Sequence record: OM386654.1
DNA from: Escherichia phage vB_EcoM_ESCO9
Reading direction: 5' to 3' (one strand)
DNA length: 64,000 bases
This document shows, one piece after another, positions 18,328 through 37,757 of this stretch. The notes beneath the pieces were generated by a model. It worked only from the letters and a program-made list of their open reading frames with translations, ran no database searches and was not told the DNA's origin. Made by a program: the position numbers and the translations under genes. How positions within the stretch are numbered: the stretch's first letter is position 1; every line of letters begins with the position of its first letter.

Positions 18328-19455
18328 TTAAAACACACTTGCCAAAGTTGCACCATTGGTGATAGTTGGTTCCAGAACAATACGGAAAGAATCTTCTGGA
18401 TCATCACTAAACACAACGATTTTACCGCCTGTGATAAGATCTGCTTTCATTTTTGTCGCATTCAATGGAATTCGAGCATCGCCTTCATCATCAAAAACCA
18501 CGTAAGAGCTATTAGCAAGGGCTTCTTTAGAATCTGCATCACTTGGAGATGACAAGTACACGTCTAGTGTGCACGAGCCACCTAAAAAGATTGCAGGTGT
18601 AAAGTTATGCCAACTAGATACCCAGCTAACTTTCTGAAGTTTCCCATTAATAACAACACTGCTGATATCCCATTTATTACCACCACCTAAAGAAACGCCC
18701 ATCATAGAGATGCATTCTTTAAAGGATAAATCAGGGTAGAAATTAAGTTCTTCTACTATACCTTGGATCACATCAAAGGACAACTCTAAACTTACATCCC
18801 AAAGTCTTTGGAAATTATCAAAGTGTGCTTTGTTATCCAGGTTTTTATCTAAATAGTCAATCATAGTTTCTAGTGAGATTTTATCATAATTAAAATTATA
18901 AAACACACGACTAGGACGATTTAAAAAGAATTCAGAGATAAAACCACTGTTTTTAGTCAGAATAAACAGTTTATTACCACTGCCAGTACCATCTAACAAA
19001 GTGAGAAGTGCTTCTTGATCTTGTTTCTTCTCATACACTTTATCAAACTCGTCAAAAATAATCACTGCTTTGTCTGTGATCTTGCTAATAAGTTCAATGA
19101 AATTAGCATCGCTGTAGGCTTGAGTAACCATAATAGTTGGAATACCTTCTTCTACAAGGTCACGACTAATGAGTTTGGCTAACATAGTTTTACCACTGCC
19201 CTTAGTGCCTGTCAGGAGCAAACCTGTATTTTTACCTTGTGCACTCCGGCGATGGAATGTACGAATAACGTGATTTGCTCGTTTTTCTGTTTCACCATAC
19301 AGAACATCCGGTACACCTGTTAGATTACCACGGCTTAAAAAGTAATTGCCAAGGGGATCACGACTAACAGTATAGAATCCAGGTGGAAGATAGTTAGATT
19401 CCACGCCCATATCTTTATTTACACTTACAATATCACCATAAATCGTGTATTTCAT
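18328..19455 (-). CDS. AAA-family ATPase; paralog of 33435..34595
   Basis: Walker A GTKGSGKT, Walker B IIFDEFDK, LFILTKN...RPSR region. Confidence 0.7.
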   Translation of the reverse strand: MKYTIYGDIVSVNKDMGVESNYLPPGFYTVSRDPLGNYFLSRGNLTGVPDVLYGETEKRANHVIRTFHRRSAQGKNTGLLLTGTKGSGKTMLAKLISRDLVEEGIPTIMVTQAYSDANFIELISKITDKAVIIFDEFDKVYEKKQDQEALLTLLDGTGSGNKLFILTKNSGFISEFFLNRPSRVFYNFNYDKISLETMIDYLDKNLDNKAHFDNFQRLWDVSLELSFDVIQGIVEELNFYPDLSFKECISMMGVSLGGGNKWDISSVVINGKLQKVSWVSSWHNFTPAIFLGGSCTLDVYLSSPSDADSKEALANSSYVVFDDEGDARIPLNATKMKADLITGGKIVVFSDDPEDSFRIVLEPTITNGATLASVF

Positions 19456-19467
19456 TTTAAACCCCTT

Positions 19468-19905
19468 TTATCTTTGTTGAGATGAACGAATTAAATCAGC
19501 AGCAAATTCAATCAGATACACTTTTGGTGCAATAATAATTTTTAGCCAATCGAAATTCGAAAAGAAAATAACAAATCCTAAAAAGAAAAAGAAAGCACAG
19601 ACAACAAGACCAACAATAGGCAAAGCAGATACCTCACCATAGCGATCTCGTGACCACAGACATTCTTTATCTTTAATTGCTTTTATGAGGTTCCGCACAA
19701 CAATAAAAGTAATAAACATAAAGCAAATACTAAAAAGTTGCCATAAACCTGCGGATACTGCTTTCCACATTAATAATTGATGAATTACTTCTGGAATTTG
19801 TTGTTTTCCAAACTCTACAACATCACTCATTGTTTGAATAGTGACGTTAACCATGTTCAGAAGTACATCAGTTGCTTTATCTGCGATTGCGTTTGTTTTA
19901 CTCAT
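19468..19905 (-). CDS. membrane protein
   Basis: 145 aa with hydrophobic helices. Confidence 0.6.
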   Translation of the reverse strand: MSKTNAIADKATDVLLNMVNVTIQTMSDVVEFGKQQIPEVIHQLLMWKAVSAGLWQLFSICFMFITFIVVRNLIKAIKDKECLWSRDRYGEVSALPIVGLVVCAFFFFLGFVIFFSNFDWLKIIIAPKVYLIEFAADLIRSSQQR

Positions 19906-19919
19906 TCTTTATTCCTCAC

Positions 19920-20093
19920 TTACCTTTTAAGGAAACCAATCATAATGAAGAACCACATCCAGGCAGGAGAGATAATAAAGCCAAAGAAACCGCAAATAAC
20001 CGCTTTCTTAATCTCTTCCAGACAACCCACCAGGAAAAGAACGAGTGAGACTACAATCCAGATAGCCATAAATACTGTAACAAAGAAACTCAT
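19920..20093 (-). CDS. small membrane protein (57 aa), approximate
   Basis: ORF below track cutoff; GGAGAAAGG RBS; two hydrophobic segments. Confidence 0.3.
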   Translation of the reverse strand: MSFFVTVFMAIWIVVSLVLFLVGCLEEIKKAVICGFFGFIISPAWMWFFIMIGFLKR

Positions 20094-20113
20094 ACCTTTC
20101 TCCCGTCTGTATT

Positions 20114-20365
20114 TTAAAATTCAACCACTACTTTGTCGAGGTGCTCTGCTTCAACTTGATCTAATGTTAACACCTCAACTAAACCCTTGTCAATACCTAA
20201 TTTAATAACATCAACATATTGTCCAAACAGATCCTGAATAGATATCTTGTGTTCGACAACAACCACTACTTCATTCCCTTTTGTGAATTCTCTCCATACA
20301 CGTCCACATTTGAAAATAAAGTCTGCTTCGTCTTCTGTTATCATTTTAGGTTTGATGCTTAACAT
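20114..20365 (-). CDS. hypothetical protein
   Basis: 83 aa ORF. Confidence 0.5.
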   Translation of the reverse strand: MLSIKPKMITEDEADFIFKCGRVWREFTKGNEVVVVVEHKISIQDLFGQYVDVIKLGIDKGLVEVLTLDQVEAEHLDKVVVEF

Positions 20366-20916
20366 TATAAAACTCCGTATTCCGGCTCAAAATCATATTT
20401 TTCACAAATCATGTCCCAGCGTTCGTTGCCGAAGCTGCGACCACAAATTGCATCGTAAGCATAATGCTCTGCTAACCATTTTACAACAGTGTCTACATCG
20501 TTATCAAGTGGTAATCTGAATTCTTTGCCGTATCGCATACGAAGAACAAATTCATCCCCTTCTTCAAACAAGTGCATATGGCTTTTTGCATAAGAAGCAA
20601 GGTTGAAAAAAGATACCTTTTCCCAGCATTCTTTTTCCACTGCAATTCCGTGATCAACAACTAAAGTACCGATAACGCGATACATAATAGGACTAAACAG
20701 TGCGCTTGGGCTAGGCTGCTCTTCAACTATAGACCAACCTGTCCCCTGCCAAATTTCATTTTTGAACCATTGTTGCATGTCATTCCCTTTTTCATCTACA
20801 ATGGATCGGTTACGCATTTCAAACCATTCTCCTTCGCAAAAGTATTTATGTTTAACGCGTTTGCCTTTTAACATTGCTTCTTTGGCTTCTATCCAAGTCA
20901 GATCGGTGTTTTGCAT
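20365..20916 (-). CDS. hypothetical protein
   Basis: Start moved to ATG at 20916 with GAGGAG RBS 8 nt upstream. Confidence 0.55.
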   Translation of the reverse strand: MQNTDLTWIEAKEAMLKGKRVKHKYFCEGEWFEMRNRSIVDEKGNDMQQWFKNEIWQGTGWSIVEEQPSPSALFSPIMYRVIGTLVVDHGIAVEKECWEKVSFFNLASYAKSHMHLFEEGDEFVLRMRYGKEFRLPLDNDVDTVVKWLAEHYAYDAICGRSFGNERWDMICEKYDFEPEYGVL

Positions 20917-21035
20917 TCGTTTATCTCCTCTCATTTGTGTATGCATTAAGATTAGCACAATAAAACAGTATGTCAATACTTGATCTGAAATTAATTTCTG
21001 GTACTCTGTGTGTATCGTAACAAAAGAGGTTAGAT

Positions 21036-21326
21036 ATGAACATCACACTAGCAACTAAGAATATTACAGAAACTTTTGATGGTTTTGGCATTATTATTGC
21101 TGTTCATGGGCATAACGAAAAATGGTTAGCCTCTTTTGAAGAGGACAAAGAACGCAATGTACGTTTGAATGCACCAATCAAAGTTTTACACCAGGTAGGT
21201 GAGAATAAGAAACAATGGAGATCATACAAAGAGTGGAACATTACGAACGAGTTAATACACAAACTTGACAAAGTGATAGACATGTTCGACAATGCACCCA
21301 TCGGTACAAAACGTGTCTTAATGTGA
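21036..21326 (+). CDS. hypothetical protein
   Basis: 96 aa; AAGAGG RBS; first gene of plus-strand block. Confidence 0.55.
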   Translation: MNITLATKNITETFDGFGIIIAVHGHNEKWLASFEEDKERNVRLNAPIKVLHQVGENKKQWRSYKEWNITNELIHKLDKVIDMFDNAPIGTKRVLM

Positions 21327-21338
21327 GAGGAGAACAAA

Positions 21339-21623
21339 ATGTACTATTCACAAGACGAAGCAGCAAACATTAAACTGGCAGTTGGCGATCTTATTGTGTC
21401 ACCTAACTACCATTGGGATAACACAGATTTGGTTGAAGTAGTAACTCATGTTGGGTTTGAGGGTGTTGTGCTCTACACACTGGGTGGAGGTGTTGTTGGG
21501 GAAATGGAACGTTATACAACAACGAAGAAACTGGTAAGCTCTTATCGCATGTTTTTACACCAAGGCTCGGAAGAGTATACAGCTTTCTTGTTGAAATTAG
21601 ACGCAGATCGGGAGAAGGCATGA
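21339..21623 (+). CDS. hypothetical protein
   Basis: 94 aa; GAGAGGAG RBS. Confidence 0.55.
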   Translation: MYYSQDEAANIKLAVGDLIVSPNYHWDNTDLVEVVTHVGFEGVVLYTLGGGVVGEMERYTTTKKLVSSYRMFLHQGSEEYTAFLLKLDADREKA

Positions 21624-21976
21624 TGAAAATTGTACACGATGAAATTCAATTTGAAGAGAGTGATCTTCTTGATCTAGATGTGACACTAAGTAAACTGATC
21701 TACAATGCACTTTCTACATATCGTGCAAAAGTGATAGCCACAAACAATGTTAAAATTCCTAGTGGGTTACTTCGTCGGATGTACCCACACGCTAAAGGTG
21801 ACTATCTACCTTATATGGAAGAACGAGCAGCAGAACACTGGCTAGAAATTCTTGAAAAAATGGAGTCCTCTTTTAAGGATTCAACTCCACCAGAAGAAGT
21901 TAATGAAAAACAGCGGCAAGATCGTTTAGAAGGTCGCATTTTGTTTGCTAAGTATTTCCATAATCTGTGGATGTAA
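21620..21976 (+). CDS. hypothetical protein
   Basis: 118 aa; ATGA start-stop overlap. Confidence 0.55.
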   Translation: MMKIVHDEIQFEESDLLDLDVTLSKLIYNALSTYRAKVIATNNVKIPSGLLRRMYPHAKGDYLPYMEERAAEHWLEILEKMESSFKDSTPPEEVNEKQRQDRLEGRILFAKYFHNLWM

Positions 21977-21988
21977 CAAGGAGTAAAC

Positions 21989-22144
21989 ATGGTTATCTAC
22001 AAAAATAAGTTCACTGGCTGTCTGCGTAAATTTATTGACAAAAAAGGGTATGTTTCTGTTGACAATGGTGTTACGTGGGTGCAAAATGGCACTTCAGAAC
22101 AACTGATCAAGGCTTTACCTTACTATGAGGAGTTTACAAAATGA
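21989..22144 (+). CDS. small hypothetical protein (51 aa)
   Basis: AAGGAG RBS; stop overlaps next start. Confidence 0.35.
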   Translation: MVIYKNKFTGCLRKFIDKKGYVSVDNGVTWVQNGTSEQLIKALPYYEEFTK

Positions 22145-22341
22145 CAGGATGGGTAAAAGTAGAAGATCCATACGATATTCCACTAGGTGAGTATGTGGTG
22201 GTAATGGAAGATGGTGAAAAAGGGTATTGTGAAGTGCATAAAAGTATGTCTGGTAAGATTATTGTGGTGAACCATCATTTTCACTTTGATTACCCTCCTA
22301 TTGTGGCATATATGCCTTTACCTAAATATGAAGGGGATTAA
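22141..22341 (+). CDS. hypothetical protein
   Basis: 66 aa; GAGGAG RBS. Confidence 0.5.
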   Translation: MTGWVKVEDPYDIPLGEYVVVMEDGEKGYCEVHKSMSGKIIVVNHHFHFDYPPIVAYMPLPKYEGD

Positions 22342-22488
22342 ATGTTATTCTTTAAACTTAATATTGCTTTTTGTTTGTTTGCAAACATTGCATTCTGGGT
22401 ACTAGGTAGTGTAAAATTAGGCTACTTCTTTATTGTACTACAAGCTATTTGTTTAGCTGGTCAAATAATCACTAAGGGGCGAGTATGA
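22342..22488 (+). CDS. small membrane peptide (48 aa)
   Basis: AAGGGGA RBS; hydrophobic; ATGA overlap with next gene. Confidence 0.35.
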   Translation: MLFFKLNIAFCLFANIAFWVLGSVKLGYFFIVLQAICLAGQIITKGRV

Positions 22489-22913
22489 CACAACAAATTC
22501 AAGACAAGTTTAATGAACTCTATCCAGCAAGCGAAAGCGGCACTCATAACGTGCGTAAATCGCTCTATAACGTCTTTAAAGCAGGATGGGAGGCTTGCCT
22601 TCAGGCTCAAGAAAAACCAGTGTCAGGGACGCGTAACGGCTTTTATATCCCGATTGTTGAAAGTGAGGAAGGATGGGGTAGCAAACATGATGGTTATATG
22701 GTAGGATTCACCATAGAAGATCTTGAAGAACGCCGTAAAGTCTTTGAGGCAGCTAATACAGAAAAGTATGGCTACTATTATGAACGACCTGTTCGTTACA
22801 TTCCTGTTGTGCTTAGTCCTAAAGCTGTTGAAACAATGTCTGCAACAGAAAAAGAAAGGACTCGCCATTGTGTATGGTTTGATGATATTGACGACTTTCG
22901 ATTTGGAGACTAA
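22485..22913 (+). CDS. hypothetical protein
   Basis: 142 aa. Confidence 0.6.
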   Translation: MTQQIQDKFNELYPASESGTHNVRKSLYNVFKAGWEACLQAQEKPVSGTRNGFYIPIVESEEGWGSKHDGYMVGFTIEDLEERRKVFEAANTEKYGYYYERPVRYIPVVLSPKAVETMSATEKERTRHCVWFDDIDDFRFGD

Positions 22914-22916
22914 TTT

Positions 22917-23189
22917 ATGAAAAATAAACACCCTTACTATCAACTATTGCATGTACTGCGCCGATTGCGCAATAAGCAGATTGAAGATTTCCGTCACTTC
23001 AAGCGTGATCGTGTGAATCGTCAATGGATGGATCATCGTTTCTTCTCTTTAACTGTACGTAAGTTCCGTGAAGAGATTAAGAAGACAGACCAGGTAATTG
23101 CAGGTGCTAAACGTGCAATCTCTATGTCAAAAATCACAGGTGTAAATCATATGTACGACTTCAAAACAGACTCTGTTGTACCTATGTAA
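22917..23189 (+). CDS. hypothetical protein
   Basis: 90 aa. Confidence 0.55.
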   Translation: MKNKHPYYQLLHVLRRLRNKQIEDFRHFKRDRVNRQWMDHRFFSLTVRKFREEIKKTDQVIAGAKRAISMSKITGVNHMYDFKTDSVVPM

Positions 23190-23353
23190 AAGTATTTTGT
23201 AAAGTTTTGTGGAGAGTATTGACTTTTTCAGAAAAACATGCTACCCTAAACCTGAAAGGTGACGAGCGAAGCGAGTTAGTATTCTCTATAGATATTGTTC
23301 CTGTCACTCATGGAGGGGCAGGAACAGAGTGTATTACTGTATAGGAGAATACT

Positions 23354-23620
23354 ATGGATGTTACTACACTAAGGTTTATACTTCTCTTCTTACTTATAGT
23401 TATAGGATTAATTGTTATACCCTATCTATACGTCTACATGTTATCTCGTAAGTATGGTTATGATCGTATACCATTTTACTATTTAATACCTGTCTTAGTT
23501 ATCTATCTATTTCTCTTTTGTAGATATTGCCCTGAATTAGTTCCTGAACATTGGAAGTTAGAACCTGTTGAAGTTTACCATTGTGAATGGAAGACAGAGT
23601 ACAGATCTAACAGTAATTAG
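23354..23620 (+). CDS. membrane protein
   Basis: 88 aa; two hydrophobic helices; AGGAGAATACT RBS. Confidence 0.55.
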   Translation: MDVTTLRFILLFLLIVIGLIVIPYLYVYMLSRKYGYDRIPFYYLIPVLVIYLFLFCRYCPELVPEHWKLEPVEVYHCEWKTEYRSNSN

Positions 23621-23623
23621 TTA

Positions 23624-23652
23624 TTGACTCTATCTACTAAATAATCTAGACT
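23624..23652 (+). promoter_or_regulatory. sigma70-type promoter
   Basis: TTGACT, 17 nt, TAGACT. Confidence 0.45.
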
Positions 23653-23680
23653 CTATGTAAAATTTACTAAGGAGACTACT

Positions 23681-23845
23681 ATGCAAAACATTTCTATCAC
23701 TAAAACAAAAAGGTCTGTACCTAAACTTACTCACTCTACATATCCTGTTATCATCCGTAAAGGAAAAGAATGGATTAAAGATGATCATGGTGGTTATGTA
23801 GAAGTGTCAAAGCTGAAAGAAGCAGAAGTTAACTTTGTACGCTAA
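23681..23845 (+). CDS. small hypothetical protein (54 aa)
   Basis: AAGGAG RBS. Confidence 0.35.
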   Translation: MQNISITKTKRSVPKLTHSTYPVIIRKGKEWIKDDHGGYVEVSKLKEAEVNFVR

Positions 23846-23855
23846 GGAGTAGACT

Positions 23856-24137
23856 ATGACTGAAGAGTTTAAGCAATGGTTTGATAAAAACTTTCCACCA
23901 CATATGTGGCCTAACGAAGAAGAACGTCAAGAAGTGATGATCTACACTTGGCTTGCCTGGCGGGATGGTATCCGTAGCAAAGAAGCCCAGGAAGAGGAAC
24001 CTATTGCTTACATCTTTAAACATCCAGCAGGTAAGTTGTTTTGGGCTTTAACAGATGAAAGTAATAAAGATCATGATGATGTTATTCCTGTGTATGCCAA
24101 GGACAATGTAAAGGATCAATCAGATGACAATGTATAG
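23856..24137 (+). CDS. hypothetical protein
   Basis: 93 aa; AAGGAG RBS. Confidence 0.55.
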   Translation: MTEEFKQWFDKNFPPHMWPNEEERQEVMIYTWLAWRDGIRSKEAQEEEPIAYIFKHPAGKLFWALTDESNKDHDDVIPVYAKDNVKDQSDDNV

Positions 24138-24606
24138 CATATGGGGTAGAATGGGCGAAGACCATGATTACTATTGCTTGAAAAGTAATGTTGAACAGGA
24201 AGATGTTGATAAAATTATAAAGCACTACCTGAAAACATGGCGTGAAGTGGAGTTTAGAGAGTTTGCTATCCTCCATAGTCAAGAAGGAGAAAAGGAGATA
24301 GACATGAGTACACTAACTAAAGCAGTACAAACGCATAAAGAATATGAGGAAGCAGTTAAAGATGAAGTAAACCCTACTTCACTGACCTTCGAAAACCTTA
24401 CCCCTTTGTTTTGGTCATACGATGGTAATGAAATTCTTACACATGATACACCAGAGGCTGTTAAAAATTGGGAAGGTTGTTGTAATTCCTATGAGGTATT
24501 ATATGTCGTAGAAGAAGATGATACGTACATTATGTTCCGCATAGATAACGGCTGTGGTGATCAATGGGATATTGTTCTTTCTAAACATTTACAATTGGGT
24601 GGTTAA
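24124..24606 (+). CDS. hypothetical protein
   Basis: 160 aa. Confidence 0.6.
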   Translation: MTMYSIWGRMGEDHDYYCLKSNVEQEDVDKIIKHYLKTWREVEFREFAILHSQEGEKEIDMSTLTKAVQTHKEYEEAVKDEVNPTSLTFENLTPLFWSYDGNEILTHDTPEAVKNWEGCCNSYEVLYVVEEDDTYIMFRIDNGCGDQWDIVLSKHLQLGG

Positions 24607-24607
24607 A

Positions 24608-24970
24608 ATGCTAAAGTACCTGATGATCACTTGGTTATGTTTACTTTCATTTGCGGGACATGCAACAGAGGGTTTTAAACTTGGTGCTGACGGTACTAAA
24701 TTCTTTACATATTGGGGTGGGAAAGCCTTATACCAAGAAGAAAAGAATAGCATAGAGTGTACGGTTAGTAAGAAGATTAAATCAGTAGATCAATATGGGG
24801 ATGCCTATACTGGTGTAGGTTTTAACTGTGGAAAAGATTTATTTCTATTTGTTAAGAAGTATTTAGATGTTAACCTTGTATTGCTTATTGTTGTAGATCC
24901 TGCTAAGTTTGAAGAGCGTAAAGCATATCGTGCAGATATGTTCCTAGAATATGATGATAAGGAGAAATAA
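24608..24970 (+). CDS. secreted protein with signal peptide
   Basis: MLKYLMITWLCLLSFAGHA signal-like N-terminus; start moved from 24554. Confidence 0.5.
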   Translation: MLKYLMITWLCLLSFAGHATEGFKLGADGTKFFTYWGGKALYQEEKNSIECTVSKKIKSVDQYGDAYTGVGFNCGKDLFLFVKKYLDVNLVLLIVVDPAKFEERKAYRADMFLEYDDKEK

Positions 24971-25321
24971 ATGCTTGATGTAACTATTAATGGTGTTAAA
25001 TATATTCCTTATGTAGAGAAAAGCAATCCTGATGCCTTGGATGTTATGTTTGAGGATTCAGATCTTGGTACTGTCACTGTACGGGAATATTTCCGACAAC
25101 TACTCTCTACGTTATGGAGAGAAGAAGAGTGTTTTAATGGTAAACGTCCATTTGGTAACTCATGCTGGCAATTTGATATGATCCGCGCCTTAATTGAGGC
25201 AGGGTATATTGAAGGTACAGTTGTGTACGATGAAGATGGATATCCAGAAGAGACTGACTACGACAGTAAAGAAGCTAATAAATTTATACAGGGCTTGATT
25301 GCACAGATGTGTTTGGGTTAA
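24971..25321 (+). CDS. hypothetical protein
   Basis: 116 aa. Confidence 0.55.
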   Translation: MLDVTINGVKYIPYVEKSNPDALDVMFEDSDLGTVTVREYFRQLLSTLWREEECFNGKRPFGNSCWQFDMIRALIEAGYIEGTVVYDEDGYPEETDYDSKEANKFIQGLIAQMCLG

Positions 25322-25322
25322 T

Positions 25323-25709
25323 ATGAAAGTATTAAATTTTTACCACTTAGGTAAAGTAATACCTGAAGGTGCAGTTTACATTGGCAGAGCTATGCCTCAT
25401 ATGGGGTTAAAAGCCTCAAAGTTTGCAAATCCTTTTAAGTTAAAGGATGATGAACCACGAGGGTCAACTATACAAAGATATAAAGAGTGGTTGTGGGAAC
25501 AAATTCGTTGTGGTAAAATCACTCTTGAGGATTTGTTAGAATTAGAAGGGAAAGACTTAGTTTGCTTCTGCGCACCTCAACCTTGTCATGGTGATGTGTT
25601 GGTAGCAGCGGTTGCTTGGGCTAGAGCAGAGTGGGATAAAAGGCATCCTACTTACACAGATGATTATTGGATTTGGGAGGATATTTATGAAGACTACACA
25701 AGAAATTAA
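25323..25709 (+). CDS. DUF4326-like protein
   Basis: VYIGR...NPF...Y..WL...L..L.GK.L.C.C.P..CHGDVL pattern; start moved to ATG at 25323. Confidence 0.5.
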   Translation: MKVLNFYHLGKVIPEGAVYIGRAMPHMGLKASKFANPFKLKDDEPRGSTIQRYKEWLWEQIRCGKITLEDLLELEGKDLVCFCAPQPCHGDVLVAAVAWARAEWDKRHPTYTDDYWIWEDIYEDYTRN

Positions 25710-26052
25710 CGTATTTGATCTGTCAGGTTTAGATATGGAAAAAGCAACCCTGTATCATCACGATAAAGATAACATTACGTACATCTACATCGGAGCAGAT
25801 AAATATAACATTCCTGAAAACTCCCTAGCGGTAATGAAGGAAGGGGATATGCCTTTGCAAGAGAAGATGATTGGTTTTTCCTTTCGTCAAGATGTTAAGA
25901 TGGATGGTGTTATTGCTGTCTTCCAGGTGGACGAGTTTTATATGGTTACTTTTGTCACACCAAATTTCACCAATATCAATGGGGAAGAGGCAGCAAACGA
26001 TGTTATTGTTCTAACGTTGGGTAATGCCTTAAAAGATTTAGAAAACGTTTAA
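25687..26052 (+). CDS. hypothetical protein
   Basis: Start moved to ATG at 25687 with GGAGG RBS. Confidence 0.5.
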   Translation: MKTTQEINVFDLSGLDMEKATLYHHDKDNITYIYIGADKYNIPENSLAVMKEGDMPLQEKMIGFSFRQDVKMDGVIAVFQVDEFYMVTFVTPNFTNINGEEAANDVIVLTLGNALKDLENV

Positions 26053-26073
26053 CAAACCAATAAGGAAAATATA

Positions 26074-26589
26074 ATGTTTTTTGATGCTCAATCTCCACTT
26101 GTTGACTCTGTAAGCAGGGCGGTAATATATCCAGACTTTGATGAAAGAGAAATATGGCTTAAGGAACACCACTATGATCCAGAAAATGTCAACTGGTGCA
26201 ATCTGGATGTTGGTAAGTATCCGCGAGATAAGGGCATCTTGAAATATTATGCTTGCTATACGGTGGATAACATCTATGAATACTACGTGTTTCGTAGTTT
26301 GATTATCCATCTAAATAAATTGGGTGCTCTAACAGGAGATTCTCAATTTACTCTAGGCCACTATAAACCATTTAAGAAAGGTGGAGAGCACTTTCCAAGC
26401 AATTGGATTATACAAACATTAAAAGATAATTCTCGTGCTAGTGATGTTATCCCAGACAAAAAAGAAAAGTGGACATGGCATGAGCAAATGGAGTATATTA
26501 TACAACATATGCCACAACGTGTATTGTATGAGGAAAAGTTGGTCAACCGTTGTGCCGAGTTAATACAGATTGTTAAAGGGTTTTACTAG
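26074..26589 (+). CDS. hypothetical protein
   Basis: 171 aa; AAGGAAA RBS. Confidence 0.6.
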   Translation: MFFDAQSPLVDSVSRAVIYPDFDEREIWLKEHHYDPENVNWCNLDVGKYPRDKGILKYYACYTVDNIYEYYVFRSLIIHLNKLGALTGDSQFTLGHYKPFKKGGEHFPSNWIIQTLKDNSRASDVIPDKKEKWTWHEQMEYIIQHMPQRVLYEEKLVNRCAELIQIVKGFY

Positions 26590-26597
26590 GGGGAAAT

Positions 26598-27074
26598 ATG
26601 TCTAAACGTTTTGGTCGTAATCAAAAAAGAAAGTTAAGTGCTCAACTAGCAGCTTTGCAAAAAGAGGTTAACACTTTACAAAAAAGTGTTTGTGAACTTA
26701 AGGAACAAAACCAACTTGAAAAAGAGTGTATCCAGCTTACACAGGAAGTTATTGGTGAGTATTTTCCTTCACTAGTTCCTAAGAAGGTGGCTCTTAGGGA
26801 AAATCTACCTTTTACCTTGTCCTTAATGCAAGCAAATGATAGATTCCAAACTGAAACTGATGATTTGATGTTTGCAATGCATCAATTACATGGTTTAGAA
26901 TATACAGCACAAGTGGATAAACTTCGTAACATGTTATATGTGCGGGTAGAAACACCTAAAGGTGAGACAGTAGCTTTTAATTATAATTTCCAACAGCTAC
27001 CTGATCATATTATTGAACAAATTTTAAAACGAGATTTTGTTCCTATGCTTGTTAAACAAATTAAGAGAGGTTGA
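26598..27074 (+). CDS. hypothetical protein (coiled-coil N-terminus)
   Basis: 158 aa. Confidence 0.6.
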   Translation: MSKRFGRNQKRKLSAQLAALQKEVNTLQKSVCELKEQNQLEKECIQLTQEVIGEYFPSLVPKKVALRENLPFTLSLMQANDRFQTETDDLMFAMHQLHGLEYTAQVDKLRNMLYVRVETPKGETVAFNYNFQQLPDHIIEQILKRDFVPMLVKQIKRG

Positions 27075-27075
27075 A

Positions 27076-28812
27076 ATGGCTAAGAAAGAGTTGAGCTTCA
27101 CTCCGACAGAAGAGCAAACAGCTATTAAGGAGGCTTTTCCAGATCATCGCTTTTTAACTATCCAAGCTAAATCTGGATCAGGTAAAACGTCAACACTTTA
27201 TTTGCTGGCTAACAGTACAGAAGATCGCATTCTTTACTTAGCTTTCAATAAAAGCATGGCAGAAGAAGCACGGCGTAAGATGCCACCAAATGTAGAATGC
27301 CGTACATTGCATTCCATTTGCTATCAATTCCTGGATCATCGCTTACGTGCAAAACTGTCACGACCAGAAGGACAATATGTTAACGTTGCAGGTACAGGTA
27401 GCGAGATAGCAAAGAAATTTAAGATTAATAATCTTATTGATAAACGAGGGAAAACACTTTTAACTCGTGCTATGATTGGTTTAATGATCAAGCAAACAGT
27501 AGGTAAGTTTGAATTTTCGGATGATCCTTTTATCAGCCGTAAACATTTTCCTAGTGTACATCTTGCAGATATTAAAAGAAAAGGTATTAACGAACACAAA
27601 CTAATTACAGAAGTAGTTAAGTATGCAAAACAATTGTGGCGAGAGCGCATTGATCCTAATACAGATACTTTGATGACGCATGACACCTATGTAAAATTGT
27701 TTGAATTATCAGGTGCTGATCTTGGTTATGACATTATTTTTGGGGATGAATTCCAGGATGTTAACCCTGCATTCTTGTCTATTCTGCGAAATGCTAAATC
27801 TGCAAAACAAGTAGTAGTGGTCGGGGACGAATATCAGAGCATCTACCAGTTCCGTGGAAGCCAAAATATGATGAAGGAAACCTCTACATATGGGGCAGAG
27901 CTTCCATTAACTGCTTGCTTCCGTTTTGGCCCCAAAGTGGCAAACATTGCCAATATGATTTTAAGCGATAAAGAACCTTTGCGTCATCCTTTGGTTGGTA
28001 AAGGCTTTGATACTGTAGTAGGTAGCTACAAATCAGATGTTGTAGACTATACAAAACCTTACACTATCATCTTTCGCAAGAATTTAACCTTGCTTATGGA
28101 GGCAATGGATCGTATTGCAGATGGGGAAGAAATTATTATTAACGTAGATACCAGGGATTTTATCTCTATGGTAGATAGTGTTAATGCTCTTCGGAGAGGA
28201 GATATTGAGAAAGTAAAACATGAAACTGTATTACCTTACGCAGACTGGAATGAATTTGTTGAGTGTGCAGAGGCTGATCCAGATGCTAAACGCTTGTTAA
28301 ACATCGTAGTTTCTGGTAAGGCGAACACTATAGCACATACACTTAGAACGCATAGAAATTCTCCTACAGCAAAAGTCACACTGACTACAGCACACAAGTC
28401 TAAAGGTTTGGAGTGGGATCAGGTTATTGTTGCTAATGATTTTCCTTCCAACTATGATAAAAAGACTGGTGAATGGGTAGGACTGGAAGAGGCAGAGCGA
28501 AACCTACTGTATGTAGCGCATACCCGTTGTGTTAAATGCTTACAATGGAACACAACCGTACAGGAGATTATAGATATCAACCGTGTTGCAACAGAGAAAG
28601 TACCAACAAGCACCACTTTACCGATCAATGGTATTAAACTTGGTGTATTTGGCGCTGGCACATCTCGAAAAACTGTAGAAAAATTTGTTGCAGATTCTTT
28701 TGATGGTAACTATAATCATGCACAAGCATATGAGAGTTGGCTAGAGGAAGGTGAAGGTGATTTCTTAGGTGAAATAAATCTTTTACCAGACATAAATAAA
28801 CTGGTAAACTAA
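27076..28812 (+). CDS. SF1 DNA helicase, UvrD/PcrA-like
   Basis: Walker A SGSGKT; IIFGDEFQD; VVVVGDEYQSIYQFRG; TAHKSKGLEWDQVIV. Confidence 0.8.
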   Translation: MAKKELSFTPTEEQTAIKEAFPDHRFLTIQAKSGSGKTSTLYLLANSTEDRILYLAFNKSMAEEARRKMPPNVECRTLHSICYQFLDHRLRAKLSRPEGQYVNVAGTGSEIAKKFKINNLIDKRGKTLLTRAMIGLMIKQTVGKFEFSDDPFISRKHFPSVHLADIKRKGINEHKLITEVVKYAKQLWRERIDPNTDTLMTHDTYVKLFELSGADLGYDIIFGDEFQDVNPAFLSILRNAKSAKQVVVVGDEYQSIYQFRGSQNMMKETSTYGAELPLTACFRFGPKVANIANMILSDKEPLRHPLVGKGFDTVVGSYKSDVVDYTKPYTIIFRKNLTLLMEAMDRIADGEEIIINVDTRDFISMVDSVNALRRGDIEKVKHETVLPYADWNEFVECAEADPDAKRLLNIVVSGKANTIAHTLRTHRNSPTAKVTLTTAHKSKGLEWDQVIVANDFPSNYDKKTGEWVGLEEAERNLLYVAHTRCVKCLQWNTTVQEIIDINRVATEKVPTSTTLPINGIKLGVFGAGTSRKTVEKFVADSFDGNYNHAQAYESWLEEGEGDFLGEINLLPDINKLVN

Positions 28813-28822
28813 GGGGGTTAAA

Positions 28823-29074
28823 GTGGCAGGGTATCATTTGAAGGAGATTAGCAAAGAGGAATATGGTTCTGTTGCTAAGATTCAAGAAGAGCTTTATGAA
28901 CTTCAAGATGCTATTGATCAAGATTGCAAGCTGATGCAACTTATTGAGTTATCAGATATTGTAGGCGCTGTTGAAGGTGTTCTTGAACAGTATTTTCCTG
29001 ATATGACGCTTCAAGATTTGATCACTATGTCAAACATTACTAAACGTGCATTCCGCAATGGAGGTCGATCATGA
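28823..29074 (+). CDS. hypothetical protein, possibly MazG-like all-alpha NTP pyrophosphatase (weak)
   Basis: 83 aa; E..EL.DAI...L.ELSDIVGA pattern; GTG start. Confidence 0.3.
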   Translation: MAGYHLKEISKEEYGSVAKIQEELYELQDAIDQDCKLMQLIELSDIVGAVEGVLEQYFPDMTLQDLITMSNITKRAFRNGGRS

Positions 29075-29643
29075 ATGTTGCAGTAATAGCTCAAGCTATT
29101 GATTACTATGGTCGATTTGCACAAATGTTAGAAGTTCCATATCTCGTGGATGCTGATATACTGGCGTACACACTACCAGAAAATAAAGAGGATCGCCCAT
29201 TAGGGCATCCTAACGGTAAATACTATGTAGCTAGTGCAGAACAATCTTTCCTGCAAATGGAGAAGGATGGTTTTGAATTTGCAGCAGGTAATCCGTATAT
29301 GGCACTAACGCCATGTTACCGTACAGAAGAAAATTTAGATGATACCCATTTTAATATTTTCTTGAAATTGGAGTTGATTGAGTTCTACCCTGGTGCTACA
29401 ATTGAAGAGTATGCTAACGCTATGCGCTGTTTCTTCTCTACTTATTATGGAGTTAAAACATATTTAGTACCCACTAATATTGGGGTTGACGTAGAGGATG
29501 AATATGGTTTAGAATTAGGTTCATTCGGTATGAGGGAGTCTCCAAACGGTCATCCTTATATCTATGCAACAGGTGTTGCGGAGCCTAGGGCTTCACTGGC
29601 AATAAACCGTGTTGTAAATAACATTCAAAGCATTAGCAAATAA
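29071..29643 (+). CDS. hypothetical protein
   Basis: 190 aa. Confidence 0.6.
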   Translation: MNVAVIAQAIDYYGRFAQMLEVPYLVDADILAYTLPENKEDRPLGHPNGKYYVASAEQSFLQMEKDGFEFAAGNPYMALTPCYRTEENLDDTHFNIFLKLELIEFYPGATIEEYANAMRCFFSTYYGVKTYLVPTNIGVDVEDEYGLELGSFGMRESPNGHPYIYATGVAEPRASLAINRVVNNIQSISK

Positions 29644-29655
29644 GAGGAGAATAGA

Positions 29656-30090
29656 ATGTCTATTGTGACACAAATGAAAGCAGATCGTATCTTAGCACGT
29701 ACAACCGACAAGGGTGCTTTTGCTTTGTTAACTAATATTATTGGTGAGTTTGACCTTGCTCGTACTCAAAAGGCAAATCTGAACAAATCAGAAGATGATA
29801 TTATGATTAACATTGTTAAGATTGGTATTGCACACGCTAAAGAGGAACTAGACTCGCTTAAGAAAGTTAATGCTTCCATTAGCAAATGTGAGCGAGCTAT
29901 GCGTGATATCACCACTCTGGAAAAATATTTACCAGAAATGCTATCTGAAGATGACCTTCGAGCGATTGCTGAAGAATTTGCCTTGACAGGCAAGAAAATG
30001 CCAGATATGATGAAACACCTTAAAGCAGAGTATCCTAATCAATATGATGGAAAACTTGCTTCTACCATTGCCAAAGAAATTTTAAACTAA
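29656..30090 (+). CDS. GatB/YqeY-domain protein
   Basis: C-terminal LEKYLPEMLSEDDLRAIAEEF...DGKLASTIAKEILN resembles YqeY. Confidence 0.65.
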   Translation: MSIVTQMKADRILARTTDKGAFALLTNIIGEFDLARTQKANLNKSEDDIMINIVKIGIAHAKEELDSLKKVNASISKCERAMRDITTLEKYLPEMLSEDDLRAIAEEFALTGKKMPDMMKHLKAEYPNQYDGKLASTIAKEILN

Positions 30091-30107
30091 TTTAGAAGGA
30101 GAACATA

Positions 30108-31058
30108 ATGATTGCATTTTACGCTAATAAACTGGAAGTTAAAAAAGCAGCAGAAGAGATGGGTATCCTGCATATTCTTAATGAAGCAATTCACAAAAGT
30201 TTTGGTTACACATCTGAAGCAGAAATCAATGATCTGATTCATAGTGTTAATGACTTGTTCTTCTATCCTAACTTCCTACAGCAATTAGATGGTTGTGGAT
30301 TTGAATATATGGAACTTCACCCTGAATACACATTTATGGAAGTAACACCTGAAGGTTTTCTGGAGATTATTCGTACTGAATATCTTGCCAACGAGGATAA
30401 AGAAATGGATATGGTTGCAAAAGTACAACTGACTGTGCATAATACGTGTTTCCTGGATACTAGTGCAACGGAAGAAGATATTAGTTATCTGCTTTCCGTT
30501 TGTAATCCGCATTGTCCACAACCACATTGGAAAGATGCAGACCATTATCTAACATATTCAACTGAAGAAAACATTACTTTCTTCGATGAAAACAGTGGTA
30601 TTAATGGTGCACATAAGAATTCTCCATATAGGAAAGATCGGTTTGTAGTTGATGTAAAAACATTTACTAAACTGTTTGAGGAGTATTATTCAAAAAATGA
30701 AAGTAAGACTGAATCTTCACCAAAACCACGTTTTCGCCGACCGCGTAAACCTGTGCCTACTCGTTCTGTAAGTTATGTTCGTATCATTTACACTACGCAG
30801 CAGGTATATACTCTTAAGAACGTAAGCACTCTTACTGTACAAGAAGATGTAATTAATATTGTGCGTAATAATGTTATTACAGAGGGTATTGAGGAAAAGA
30901 TTATGTCTGTTATCGATCCTAAACTTGTTATGGCAATCATTATTAATGAACCAAAAGGTGTAACAACATTGTTCCGAAATATTCATGGCACTTGGGAAAC
31001 TCAAGTTGACGGTTTGACTTCTGACGGTTGTACACGTATTACCAAAAACCTTGACTAA
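30108..31058 (+). CDS. hypothetical protein
   Basis: 316 aa; AAGGAG RBS. Confidence 0.6.
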   Translation: MIAFYANKLEVKKAAEEMGILHILNEAIHKSFGYTSEAEINDLIHSVNDLFFYPNFLQQLDGCGFEYMELHPEYTFMEVTPEGFLEIIRTEYLANEDKEMDMVAKVQLTVHNTCFLDTSATEEDISYLLSVCNPHCPQPHWKDADHYLTYSTEENITFFDENSGINGAHKNSPYRKDRFVVDVKTFTKLFEEYYSKNESKTESSPKPRFRRPRKPVPTRSVSYVRIIYTTQQVYTLKNVSTLTVQEDVINIVRNNVITEGIEEKIMSVIDPKLVMAIIINEPKGVTTLFRNIHGTWETQVDGLTSDGCTRITKNLD

Positions 31059-31105
31059 GATCAAGGACAATCTTACGAAAAAGATTTAAAATAAAGATCC
31101 ACCCT

Positions 31106-31134
31106 AAAGCCAGCTTAATGCTGGCTTTTATTTT
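31106..31134 (+). terminator. intrinsic terminator
   Basis: aaagccagc-ttaat-gctggcttt then tatttt. Confidence 0.6.
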
Positions 31135-31147
31135 CCACGGAGGATTA

Positions 31148-32947
31148 ATGACCCAAAAACTATATGAGGATGTAATCGGATTCCTCGAACAAACATCCGA
31201 AGAATTTACTCGTGAAAATGCAAACAAACCTGCAATGATTGTTAATACTCACCGAGATTTACTAGCAGGTATCCTAAGCAAGCACATGGCAATGACCCAT
31301 ATTTTACCTGAAGATTTAGCAGAATGGCATAAAAGTGGGTATGGTCACATCCACGATTTAGATTATTTACTCTCACCTTTAACTAATTGTTGCCTGGTAA
31401 ATTACCAAGATATGCTTGAGAACGGTTTCCGTATTGGTAATGCACATATTGAAAAACCAAAATCTATCGGTGTAGCGACTACTGTCCTAACTCAAATTAT
31501 TCAAGCAGTAGCTTCTAGCCAATATGGTGGACAAACTTGTGCACATGTTGATACTGGGCTTAGTCAATACGTTAAAGCAAGTTTTAATAAAATATATGCT
31601 GATGTTGGCGATTATGATATTGCTATGCGTATGGTAGATAAACAGGTCTATGATGCAATGCAAACTTTAATCTACCAGGTGAACACTCTAATGAGTGTAA
31701 ATGGTCAGTCACCTTTTATAACAATTAGTTTAGGTTTGGATACCTCTGCTTTTGGTAGAATGATCACTAAAAACTACCTAATGGTGCACAAACAAGGGTT
31801 GGGAAAAGATAGGGTAACTCCTGTGTTTCCTAAAGTTATCTTCTTCTTGGAAGATGGTGTTAACATGAAAGCTGGCGATCCAAATTATGATTTGAAGCAA
31901 CTGGCAATGGAGTGTTGTGCTGAACGCATTTATCCTGATTTTATCTCTGTACCTTTAAACAAAGAAGTTACAGGATCTTCAGATGGTCGCGTCACAAGCA
32001 TGGGTTGCCGTAGCTTCTTGTCATACTATGCAACAGAGCAAGGTGAAAAATATGATGGTCGTTTCAACTTAGGCGTAGTTTCTTTAAACTTACCTATCAT
32101 TGCAGCAGAGTCCCGTGAAAAGGGCATCTTATTTACTGAACTGTTGGAACAACATATGGAGATGGCGTATAAGGCACATATGCTACGTGTTAACCGTATT
32201 AGACATACCAAAGCATCTCAAAACCCTACATTGTTTATGGAAGGGGCTTTAGCTCGACTAGAAGCTAATGAAGAGATTGGTAAACTATTCGAAGGTGGTT
32301 ATGCCTCTATTAGTATCGGTTATGTAGGTTTAGCAGAAGCTATGGAGATTTTATACCCAGGTAACACCAATCCAAAAGCAATGGGTAAAAACATCCTTCA
32401 ATATATGAAGGATATCTGTGGCACATTTAAAGAACGTTCTGGTTTAGCTTTTAGTTTGTATGGAACACCAGCAGAATCCTTGTGCTATAAATTTGCCAAA
32501 GCATTAAATGATCGCTATCCTGGTTCTATTGATCGTGACTACTTGACAAACTCTTTCCATCAACCTGTGTGGATGCACACTACCCCGTTCCAAAAGTGGG
32601 ATTATGAGGAAGGTTTTGCACAAATCAGTAATGGTGGGAACATAGGCTATGTAGAAACACCAAACCTTAAAAATAACTTGCAAGCACTGGAAACCCTTGT
32701 AGATTATGCCTACAACAAAATTCCTTATTTTGGCGTGAACCAACCTGTAGATCAGTGTTTCAAATGTGGTTTTCATGGTGAATTTAAGGCAACAGCTAAA
32801 GGCTTCGAGTGTCCAATTTGTGGCAATCATGAGGAAGAATCTATATCTGTAATCAGAAGAGTGTCAGGATACCTGTCTGCCCCTAACTCTCGCCCTTATA
32901 ATAAAGGTAAAATGCAAGAGGTATTAGAAAGGGAGAAACATTTTTGA
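31148..32947 (+). CDS. nrdD: anaerobic ribonucleoside-triphosphate reductase (class III)
   Basis: C-terminal glycyl-radical RVSGYL motif and Zn ribbon CFKCG...CPICG; start moved to ATG 31148 after GGAGG. Confidence 0.9.
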   Translation: MTQKLYEDVIGFLEQTSEEFTRENANKPAMIVNTHRDLLAGILSKHMAMTHILPEDLAEWHKSGYGHIHDLDYLLSPLTNCCLVNYQDMLENGFRIGNAHIEKPKSIGVATTVLTQIIQAVASSQYGGQTCAHVDTGLSQYVKASFNKIYADVGDYDIAMRMVDKQVYDAMQTLIYQVNTLMSVNGQSPFITISLGLDTSAFGRMITKNYLMVHKQGLGKDRVTPVFPKVIFFLEDGVNMKAGDPNYDLKQLAMECCAERIYPDFISVPLNKEVTGSSDGRVTSMGCRSFLSYYATEQGEKYDGRFNLGVVSLNLPIIAAESREKGILFTELLEQHMEMAYKAHMLRVNRIRHTKASQNPTLFMEGALARLEANEEIGKLFEGGYASISIGYVGLAEAMEILYPGNTNPKAMGKNILQYMKDICGTFKERSGLAFSLYGTPAESLCYKFAKALNDRYPGSIDRDYLTNSFHQPVWMHTTPFQKWDYEEGFAQISNGGNIGYVETPNLKNNLQALETLVDYAYNKIPYFGVNQPVDQCFKCGFHGEFKATAKGFECPICGNHEEESISVIRRVSGYLSAPNSRPYNKGKMQEVLEREKHF

Positions 32948-33414
32948 ATTACGCCGGATATGAACCTGTTGACATGCTCAACGGTGATGGTGTAAGATGC
33001 TCTTTGTGGGTGAGCGGTTGTAGCCACGGTTGCCGTGGCTGCTTTAACCAGAAAGCCTGGTCGTATAACTACGGACAAGAGTTCACTACTGAAACATTAG
33101 ATCTTATCTTGAAAGATTTATCTCGACCTTTCATTAAAGGATTAACAGTTTTAGGTGGTGAACCTCTTGACAAAGAGAACATTGACACTGTAGAGTATGT
33201 TCTTGAGAAGGTAAGAGATTGTTTTGGAAACAAAAAAGATATTGTCTTATATACAGGATATCTTTTTGAAGAAATTCCAGAAAAAATTAAAAAACTGGTT
33301 GACATAGTGATAGATGGTAAGTATGATATGAATCAACCAACAACGAAACGTTATAGAGGCTCAGATAATCAACGAATGTGGGTTAAGAAAGACAACATTT
33401 GGGAATCTGACTAA
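32944..33414 (+). CDS. nrdG: anaerobic RNR activating protein (radical SAM)
   Basis: CSHGCRGC radical-SAM cluster motif; TTG start overlapping nrdD stop. Confidence 0.85.
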   Translation: MNYAGYEPVDMLNGDGVRCSLWVSGCSHGCRGCFNQKAWSYNYGQEFTTETLDLILKDLSRPFIKGLTVLGGEPLDKENIDTVEYVLEKVRDCFGNKKDIVLYTGYLFEEIPEKIKKLVDIVIDGKYDMNQPTTKRYRGSDNQRMWVKKDNIWESD

Positions 33415-33434
33415 ATTAAATAGAGGAGAAAACT

Positions 33435-34595
33435 ATGTTTACAGTATTCGGCAATCAAATCTTTCTGCGTCAGAAATCTGGTACAGATATTGAAGAAATT
33501 CCAGCAGGAACTTTTGGTGTAGGTGTTACTCAAAGTGGTGAGTTCTTCCTGTATCCTAAAAACGATATGGAAGTCCCTTCAGTAACATACGGTGATACTG
33601 ATGATAAATCAGAACGTATTATCAAAACGTTCCTTAGCCGCAAAGGTAAAAACACAGGTGTTCTCCTTGAAGGTACGAAAGGTAGCGGTAAAACTTTGCA
33701 AGCTAAAATGCTGTCTTCTGCTCTTCGTGAAATGGGTATTCCTACTATTTCTATCGGTAGTGCTTTTAATGGTGAAGGCTTTATCAATTTTATGTCTAAA
33801 ATCACACAACCTGTGATGATTATGATCGATGAATTTGATAAACTGTATGCTGAAAAAGATGCACAAGATGGTTTGCTTACCCTGCTGGATGGTGTTGGTG
33901 GCTACGACAAACTGTTTGTATTGACTAAAAATGATGGTTATGTATCAGAATTTTTGCGTAATCGTCCTAGCCGTATTTTCTACAGTTTTAGCTATAAGAA
34001 ACTACCTAAAGCTACTATGGATGATTATCTGGCTAAAAATCTGGAGAACAAAGCCTTCTTACCAGATTTTGAAACGCTTTATAATCTCTCCGTGGATTTG
34101 AACTTTGATATTGTTCAGTCATTAGTAGAAGAACTTAACCGTTACCCTAATGACAAATTCTCTGATGCACTTGCATTGATGGGTATCAGTATTACTGAAC
34201 ACCGCTATGCTGCAAAAGAGGTTAAACTTCTGAAAGTTAACGGTGTAGATCGTACAGGAGATGTTTCGTCAGATACCGATATTGACGGTATGACAGCACA
34301 AGGTTTGTTTAGCGGTAATCGTTATGTTGTAGCTGTAGACCATAAACTAGGTGAAGAGCATCTTCCTGAAATGGAAGGGATTGTTACCGTAGAAGATAAA
34401 GATGAAGAAGGTGATTACTACTGGGGTGTAGACCGTATCTTGCTAACGTATGATGAAAAACACATTCGTACAATGGGTGGTGACGGCTATCACTTTATGT
34501 TCACCGATGATAAAGGTAACAACATTGAAGTTGTTATTAAAAACAAAGAACGTAAAAACTACACAGAGTATGTGTTTGGTGGTCGTTCTTACTAA
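33435..34595 (+). CDS. AAA-family ATPase; paralog of 18328..19455
   Basis: GTKGSGKT, IMIDEFDK, LFVLTKN...RPSR; roughly half of aligned residues shared with the paralog. Confidence 0.7.
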   Translation: MFTVFGNQIFLRQKSGTDIEEIPAGTFGVGVTQSGEFFLYPKNDMEVPSVTYGDTDDKSERIIKTFLSRKGKNTGVLLEGTKGSGKTLQAKMLSSALREMGIPTISIGSAFNGEGFINFMSKITQPVMIMIDEFDKLYAEKDAQDGLLTLLDGVGGYDKLFVLTKNDGYVSEFLRNRPSRIFYSFSYKKLPKATMDDYLAKNLENKAFLPDFETLYNLSVDLNFDIVQSLVEELNRYPNDKFSDALALMGISITEHRYAAKEVKLLKVNGVDRTGDVSSDTDIDGMTAQGLFSGNRYVVAVDHKLGEEHLPEMEGIVTVEDKDEEGDYYWGVDRILLTYDEKHIRTMGGDGYHFMFTDDKGNNIEVVIKNKERKNYTEYVFGGRSY

Positions 34596-34603
34596 GTGAT
34601 AAA

Positions 34604-34628
34604 AGGAGGCGAAAGCCTCCTTTATTTA
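34604..34628 (+). terminator. intrinsic terminator
   Basis: aggaggc-gaaa-gcctcct then ttatttat (GNRA loop). Confidence 0.6.
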
Positions 34629-34641
34629 TATGGAGGGTATT

Positions 34642-34833
34642 ATGGATCATTATTTTGTTTTTAAAGATAAAGTTGATACCGCAGGTGGTCACGTTGCTAA
34701 AAATGATCGTGACATTAAAGAAGTATTAGGAGATCTGATTAACATTTTAGAACAAAAAGAGTTGCTTTTAGATAAGGATATTGCTAGACTTCTTGGTGTG
34801 GGGATAAGTGACATACAAAGATTACCATTCTAA
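34642..34833 (+). CDS. small hypothetical protein
   Basis: GGAGGG RBS before ATG 34642. Confidence 0.4.
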   Translation: MDHYFVFKDKVDTAGGHVAKNDRDIKEVLGDLINILEQKELLLDKDIARLLGVGISDIQRLPF

Positions 34834-34845: not shown

Positions 34846-34998
34846 ATGCTTACAGATGATGAATATAAAGCTATCCAAGAAAAACTAACGGAGCTTGAAA
34901 TTCTTGCTGTCAATATTAAAGATCAATCACATGCTGGAAAGTTACTACATCAAGAGATCAATAAAATTAAGCAGATGATATTCTTTTGGACGGAGGAT
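34846..34998 (+). CDS. small hypothetical protein (50 aa)
   Basis: ORF below track cutoff; GGGGGAAGAAA RBS. Confidence 0.3.
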
Positions 34999-35003
34999 TA
35001 AAA

Positions 35004-37219: not shown

Positions 37220-37228
37220 GGAGAAAGT

Positions 37229-37435: not shown

Positions 37436-37449
37436 GAGAGGATCTTTAT

Positions 37450-37698: not shown

Positions 37699-37757
37699 TT
37701 GACTTTCTTTAAAAACAGTTTATAGTATAAGATATAGAGCGGAGGATTGTCCTCCGC
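37699..37757 (+). promoter_or_regulatory. promoter plus leader stem-loop upstream of TerC gene
   Basis: TTGACT, 17-18 nt, TAGTAT, then hairpin gcggagga-ttgt-cctccgc, then AAGAGGAG RBS. Confidence 0.5.

Follow-up and report, generated by a model that had tools for sequence, protein, structure and literature searches.

Classical AAA proteins, such as p97/Cdc48 (D2 ring), VAT, Afg2/Drg1, NVL/Rix7, Rpt/PAN and the FtsH motor, are recognised by a set of hallmarks: Walker A and Walker B motifs, a sensor-1 asparagine, a second region of homology with two arginines and an LLxxLDG block. They are among the closest described systems to a pair of genes in Escherichia phage vB_EcoM_ESCO9 (sequence record OM386654.1), of which a stretch of 64,000 nucleotides (hereafter the window) was analyzed. 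The two open reading frames (ORFs), ORF A (18328-19455, minus strand, 375 aa) and ORF B (33435-34595, plus strand, 386 aa), were found at exactly the coordinates and strands given by a first-pass annotation, which had described them as duplicated AAA ATPases, paralogous over their whole length, that might be remodelers or counter-defence factors. Here we show that A and B are anciently diverged members of one phage ATPase family and belong to the classical AAA clade, and we discuss them as candidate protein remodelers.

Both A and B matched Pfam PF00004. Across 101 family sequences including A and B, Walker A residues G83, G86, G88 and K89, Walker B residues D135 and E136, sensor-1 N169 and the arginines R180 and R183 were invariant, and the LLTLLDG block was likewise conserved. 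The arginine motif (NRPSR in A and B, NRPGR in the family consensus) aligned to RPGR of p97 D2. Among PDB profile matches of the family, p97/Cdc48 D2 was the best (E 2e-13), followed by VAT, Afg2/Drg1, NVL, Rix7 and Bcs1, and no RFC or DnaA/DnaC chain was among the best 60; chains of clamp loaders and of Cdc6/ORC gave somewhat lower scores and larger root-mean-square deviations than classical AAA chains. The column aligned to pore-loop 1 of p97 (MWFG) was aromatic in 83 of the 101 sequences, with a glycine two positions on in 81 of them. At this site B reads F-N-G, which is of the family consensus type, and A reads Y-S-D; the A clade as a whole has Y-[ST]-D, with Asp in place of Gly even in the single-copy phAPEC8 protein, and the middle residue is polar, not hydrophobic. 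The pore-loop-2 stretch was ~13 residues shorter than in p97. In the lid, the invariant F227-D228 (LSFDVIQ / LNFDIVQ) resembles SGAD[IL] by inspection only, there being no Pfam AAA_lid_3 match to fix the register. By motifs and fold, A and B belong to the classical AAA clade (p97 D2, Bcs1, Rpt and the FtsH motor); to judge from their sequences, the catalytic residues are intact in both, and each has an aromatic residue at the pore-loop-1 site.

Thus classified, A and B share with the classical AAA proteins Walker A/B, the sensor-1 Asn, the RPGR-type two-Arg region and LLxxLDG, and find among them their best profile and fold matches; the aromatic-x-Gly pattern of pore-loop 1 is seen in B, and in A its Gly is replaced by Asp. 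On the other hand, they differ from them in several respects: i) they consist of a single, minimal-size AAA module with a shortened pore-loop-2 region, at 13-20% sequence identity; ii) their N-domain is a beta domain of ~45 aa, and an extra beta domain of ~120 aa follows the lid; iii) they have no protease domain, no transmembrane helix and no second ring. Bcs1, a heptameric AAA protein that translocates the folded Rieske protein in mitochondria, differs by its transmembrane anchor; A and B gave no Bcs1_N match, and Bcs1 scored barely higher than a good number of other classical AAA proteins, which does not point to a specific relationship. Bacterial Trip13/Pch2 of the type III cyclic oligonucleotide-based antiphage signaling system (CBASS; 6p8v) aligned only over an AAA core of ~200 aa at 13% identity with the N-domain unmatched, and A and B had neither HORMA-related context nor a significant PADLOC match. 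Clamp loaders and DnaC/Hda switches have the P-loop region in common with A and B and have lent their names to some relatives; A and B, however, carry the classical-clade motif set, are without the SRC motif and the helical collar and, by inspection, seem to lack the sensor-2 arginine.

The window was assigned by Megablast of both loci to a phi92-like Justusliebigvirus (Stephanstirmvirinae). The loci of A and B were matched by 55-60 phage records at 95-99% identity, nearly all of them Escherichia Justusliebigvirus phages (e.g., AV123, Antha, BME3, muut and phi92). ORF A is the counterpart of Phi92_gp221, and proteins 100% identical to it are already deposited. An ATPase annotation pre-exists in the GenBank relatives, whose labels read 'ATPase', 'putative ATPase or Zn metalloprotease', 'FtsH-like protease' or 'hypothetical protein'. 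Both proteins matched the profile of PHROG 2376 ('ATPase', category other; 363 positions), A with an E-value of 6.6e-108 (aa 1-367 on positions 1-357) and B with one of 5.8e-104 (over aa 1-376). A and B are two members of a catalogued phage ATPase family without assigned function, and as genes they add little novelty. In length and three-part architecture they are like other carriers' proteins (Phi92_gp221, phAPEC8 gp014 and the GAP32/BF-like homologs); the sole special feature here is two members per genome. A literature search found no experimental characterisation of any PHROG 2376 member.

AlphaFold2 models of A and B (pLDDT, the predicted local distance difference test, of 91.1 and 88.7 respectively) predicted an identical three-part layout: a five-strand beta domain (aa 1-45), a linker in which a conserved YG motif is joined by a helix, an AAA part made of an alpha/beta core with a helical lid, and a beta-rich C-terminal domain (C-domain). 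In the model of A the AAA part with its lid covers aa ~55-252 and the C-domain aa ~257-375; B follows the same layout with a longer C-domain (~135 aa) that is unalignable to that of A. Structural matches in BFVD span ~390-400 columns (TM-score up to 0.73), the three-part architecture being common to PHROG 2376 members. The C-domain was the fastest-diverging part among orthologs, with 42-52% identity in the B clade as compared with 84-90% for the AAA module. It is without a convincing known relative in Pfam and PDB profile searches: DUF903, a family of small beta-barrel lipoproteins, was faintly matched by three of 29 family C-domains (best E 1.8e-5), and the PDB profile search returned no match. 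Domain fusions within PHROG 2376 were uninformative, apart from one intein-containing member: in a metagenomic family protein of 727 aa (P0206), a Hom_end/LAGLIDADG intein-like insertion lies inside the AAA domain.

Direct comparison of A (aa 3-256) with B (aa 2-253) by BLASTP yielded 119/254 identities (47%; 70% positives; E 2e-81), a similarity that reaches far beyond the P-loop and ends at about residue 255. In the family alignment, identity between the two was 24% over the N-terminal 50 residues, 52% over the AAA module (aa 51-252) and 14% over the remainder. The blocks quoted in the first-pass annotation (GTKGSGKT, DEFDK, LLTLLDG, TKN...NRPSR and EELN.YP) are all present in the sequences, with two amendments: the motif given as [IM]IDEFDK reads IIFDEFDK in A, and EELN.YP, taken for a C-terminal block, closes the AAA lid (aa ~235-241), so that ~130 residues still separate it from the actual C-terminus. 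Whole-length paralogy is not borne out at sequence level: the first two thirds are alignable and the modelled architecture is the same, but the last ~120-135 residues do not align. Direct homology of the two C-domains was rejected as a demonstrable relationship, since profile-profile comparison of the A-clade and B-clade C-domains gave no significant match (E 0.0012, probability 19%; E 0.037, probability 1.4%). Weak transitive support remains, in that each matched weakly the general C-domain profile of the rest of PHROG 2376 (A: E 5e-6, probability 86%; B: E 1.6e-4, probability 50%). Common descent of the entire A/B architecture is plausible on this indirect support from profiles and models. 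A and B are homologous and of equal architecture, and demonstrably alignable over the first two thirds only.

The history of the pair was analyzed via neighbour-joining trees (246 well-aligned columns, 100 bootstrap replicates). The A clade and the B clade were each supported in 100/100 replicates. B grouped with proteins of uncultured ~154-kb phages (the P0024 group) in 98/100 replicates and A and B were sisters in 0/100, which rejects a recent duplication within the genome; A, B, the P0024 group and P0030 formed a 100/100 group apart from the remaining family. Moreover, B is absent at the syntenic site in the sister genus Phapecoctavirus. Based on the tree and this absence, the pair reflects an ancient split or a horizontally gained second copy and not a recent duplication. 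The split is an ancient one within an enterobacterial large-myovirus lineage, through either old duplication with differential loss or horizontal acquisition of B. A is the ancestral, syntenic Stephanstirmvirinae copy, in common with phAPEC8-like phages. The two are paralogs in the broad sense (same family, same architecture), while 'duplicated' was misleading as a description. Both genes are under purifying selection: between the window and muut, the synonymous:nonsynonymous differences were 10:1 in A and 9:0 in B (small counts).

We propose, with a probability of roughly 0.55, that A and B are two ATP-driven, ring-forming protein remodelers whose targets differ via the C-domain. The remodeler part of the first-pass proposal fits the classical-AAA motifs and fold; its 'duplicated' part is misleading. 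Each protein would assemble into a ring, as the two conserved arginine fingers suggest, and the ring would hydrolyse ATP. The aromatic pore loop would then engage a substrate, predicted to be protein and not DNA, which would be remodelled or unfolded. The conserved N-domain may serve as a collar at the entrance or as a docking surface common to both, and the choice of partner or substrate would fall to the fast-evolving C-domain; hence the two copies would act on different targets, probably during early or middle infection.

A role of A and B in DNA replication, as accessory ATPases akin to helicase loaders, clamp loaders or Hda/DnaC that act as ATP switches on DNA, appears unlikely to us, although several observations point toward it. 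A and B weakly matched PHROGs of clamp loaders and DnaC-like proteins (E 1e-8 to 1e-6) as well as NCBIfam models of the Hda/DnaC type, but these matches were confined to the P-loop region and the NCBIfam scores fell far below their cut-offs. At family level neither clamp loaders (phrog_168, E 1e-8; NCBIfam RFC and DnaX, ~13 bits against cut-offs of 250-300) nor DnaC/IstB/Hda proteins (Hda, 29.8 bits against 194.8; PRK08116, 27.5 against 189; IstB, 19.9 against 200) were matched. Some relatives are labelled 'clamp loader', 'DNA replication protein' or 'DnaC'; the genes around B serve nucleotide metabolism, and a helicase gene is found 4.6 kb upstream of it; and one family member holds an intein, as replication proteins often do. 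In addition, a comparative study of crAss-like phages, whose PHROG 2376 relatives are distant, listed an AAA+ ATPase as one of four genes conserved in the replication block (PMC7886860). Weighing against a switch on DNA are the classical-clade second region of homology of the RPGR type with its two arginines and the LLxxLDG block, the lead of p97 D2 and other classical AAA proteins over RFC and DnaA/DnaC in the profile search, a C-domain that is predicted to be beta-rich with no helical collar, and the lack of a sliding-clamp gene in the annotation of the relative muut, which covers positions ~10,000-39,000 of the window. The labels 'FtsH-like protease' and 'putative ATPase or Zn metalloprotease' of several GenBank records agree with the resemblance of the AAA module to the FtsH and FtsHi motors. 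However, HExxH is absent from A and B, Pfam gave no Peptidase_M41 match, and the C-terminal part is a small beta domain that faintly resembles DUF903. Moreover, the maximum Kyte-Doolittle 19-residue mean is ~1.0 in both proteins, which makes for no transmembrane-grade stretch, and the N-terminus is predicted to be a soluble beta domain. The protease part of these labels is thus refuted, and we give a proteolytic function of A and B practically no credence.

A further reading concerns the relation of the two proteins to each other: co-assembly of A and B in one hetero-oligomeric ring, in the manner of Pex1/Pex6, Rpt1-6 and Yta10/12. Every record of the phage collection with a B-type gene (at least 60% identity) also holds an A-type copy, the AAA modules, which carry the subunit interfaces and arginine fingers, are still 52% identical, and transcription of both genes runs outward from one divergent intergenic region. 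Yet phAPEC8-like phages function with A alone, so that A does not need B; the genes are 14 kb apart in separate units, B with a ribosome-binding site and a terminator of its own; and the nearest relatives of B are in another lineage. We regard a mixed ring as rather improbable. Even more doubtful is a tie of B to the anaerobic ribonucleotide reductase (RNR), for instance as a chaperone of NrdD/NrdG, which the gene order would invite. As the first-pass annotation had noted, B comes right after nrdD-nrdG (anaerobic RNR and activase; 31148-33414, plus strand), starting 20 nt after the nrdG stop, and the spacer (33415-33434, plus strand) holds a ribosome-binding site, GAGGAG, which is 7 nt from the ATG start codon of B. 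Two terminator-like hairpins on the plus strand, one upstream of nrdD (31106-31128) and the other directly after the B stop (34602-34623; GAAA loop; given as a terminator in the annotations of PATM and Paula), both with 9-bp stems and five GC pairs, bracket nrdD, nrdG and B, which suggests a discrete three-gene unit. This adjacency, however, is not conserved in other lineages. In Stephanstirmvirinae the site is a variable slot between a 316-aa RNR-like gene (30108-31058) and a small ORF (34630-34833, plus strand, 67 aa). The small ORF follows B here, has its ortholog (49% identity) directly after nrdG in Phapecoctavirus, and forms the right-hand boundary of the presence/absence polymorphism of B. 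Justusliebigvirus has all three genes (nrdD-nrdG-B) in the slot, Phapecoctavirus Mt1B1_P17 (L085) has nrdD-nrdG alone, and Klebsiella phage KP13-26 (L166) has the B ortholog alone, without an adjacent nrdD-nrdG. Because the slot content varies in this way, B is not present throughout the subfamily and is not tied to nrdDG. Nor was nrdDG a recurrent neighbour of the family among 80 viral loci, and functional coupling of B to nrdDG was rejected as a candidate explanation.

ORF A lies elsewhere in the transcriptional layout of the window. It is the fifth gene from a divergent intergenic region near 20977, ~1.5 kb away, which heads the leftward block; its described position at the end of the minus block is thus correct in coordinates, but this end is the promoter-proximal one. 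Downstream of A, a gene with CapR and T5orf172 domains annotated as 'endonuclease' (17264-18253, minus strand) forms an ATPase-endonuclease synteny with phAPEC8. Because its length varies (990 nt here, 1191 nt in muut and 1185 nt in phAPEC8), this gene is probably mobile and of the homing type, and not a partner of A. The membrane protein encoded upstream of A was considered as a trans-anchor and rejected, for it is homologous to none of the genes that lie upstream in phAPEC8 and the P0025 contig.

Several further features surround B. A sigma-70-like sequence (11/12 matches; 33299-33327) lies inside the 3' end of nrdG, ~108 nt before B, and promoter-like sites were not enriched over shuffled sequences. 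The upstream helicase ORF (27037-28812, plus strand) encodes 591 aa here as compared with a 925-aa 'DNA helicase' coding sequence in muut, a ~1-kb indel of about the size of an intein or homing-endonuclease insertion. Downstream of B, a plus-strand run (34986-41635) encodes a HAD hydrolase (34986-35660), a ComF-like PRTase_3 protein (35653-36510), a Macro-domain protein (~36503-37219), a TerC-like membrane protein (37776-38753; label taken from relatives) and TelA (40532-41635). This is unusual cargo for a phage, and the run resembles bacterial Ter/TelA stress-response and nucleoside-like-metabolite modules.

The family itself is large. A profile search of 1.84 billion representatives yielded 3,331 clusters at E<=1e-30, nearly all of them 350-400 aa in length and matching the 358-position profile end to end. 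By tblastn, relatives were found in 300-380 phage records. Phapecoctavirus (phAPEC8-like) phages carry one copy, which shares 64.5% identity with A along the entire length and 43% with B. Other carriers included GAP32/BF-like jumbo phages, ~90-100 kb phages of Aeromonas, Proteus and Salmonella, Herelleviridae infecting Bacillus, Enterococcus, Lactobacillus and Brochothrix, ~90-kb Staphylococcus phages, Lactococcus 949-like phages, Agrobacterium phage Atu_ph07 and crAss-like phages. Among the phage records, two copies per genome were seen only in Justusliebigvirus and a few Klebsiella Stephanstirmvirinae, besides Lactobacillus phage Lpa804, a record matched in two places. Distant relatives (~30% identity over aa 1-238) were also observed in genomes and metagenome-assembled genomes (MAGs) of Lachnospiraceae and other Clostridia (L113-L161). 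In 12-13 bacterial loci, the ATPase relative lies downstream of LeuC/LeuD-like genes (from sequence reading only) and beside an apparent low-molecular-weight phosphatase gene; a Lachnospiraceae group shows this LeuC/LeuD-like neighbourhood.

When the surrounding ORFs were clustered for 80 IMG/VR loci and for 80 loci of bacteria or MAGs, no universal neighbour gene emerged. The recurrent neighbours of the ATPase in viral loci are early or auxiliary genes: i) a macro-domain protein within a few kb in 16 of 75 IMG/VR loci; ii) a NAMPT-like gene (identified by eye from its sequence) at 11 loci, often directly upstream of the ATPase with gaps of ~75-95 nt; iii) rIIA/rIIB, a metallophosphoesterase, a GDSL hydrolase, a CMD-family protein and an SPFH protein. 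In the IMG/VR loci (L005-L084), which are environmental viral contigs, an rIIB-like gene often sits immediately upstream of the ATPase (gaps of 15-42 nt), and an rIIA-like gene recurs there.

As for the counter-defence role raised in the first-pass annotation, PADLOC gave no significant defence-model match for A and B (the best was mad8, E 8.5e-4, 16.9 bits), its matches being weak and restricted to the P-loop region; no result of the analysis supports or refutes such a role. A bolder and rather long-odds extension is that PHROG 2376 proteins are phage unfoldases that dismantle host assemblies, such as oligomeric immune complexes or takeover targets, with the C-domain as the recognition module. 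If that were true, phi92-like phages would keep two copies, each disarming a different host target, and the family would rank among the most widespread unrecognised host-manipulation or counter-defence families of large virulent phages.

The analysis corrects the recurrent labels 'FtsH-like protease / Zn metalloprotease' and 'clamp loader'. Of broader significance is the family itself, thousands of clusters ranging from phi92/phAPEC8-like to crAss-like phages and lacking a known function, whose motifs suggest an active protein-remodeling motor joined to a fast-evolving accessory domain. A phage with two anciently diverged copies that differ in their C-domains is a natural system in which to ask what the C-domain recognises.

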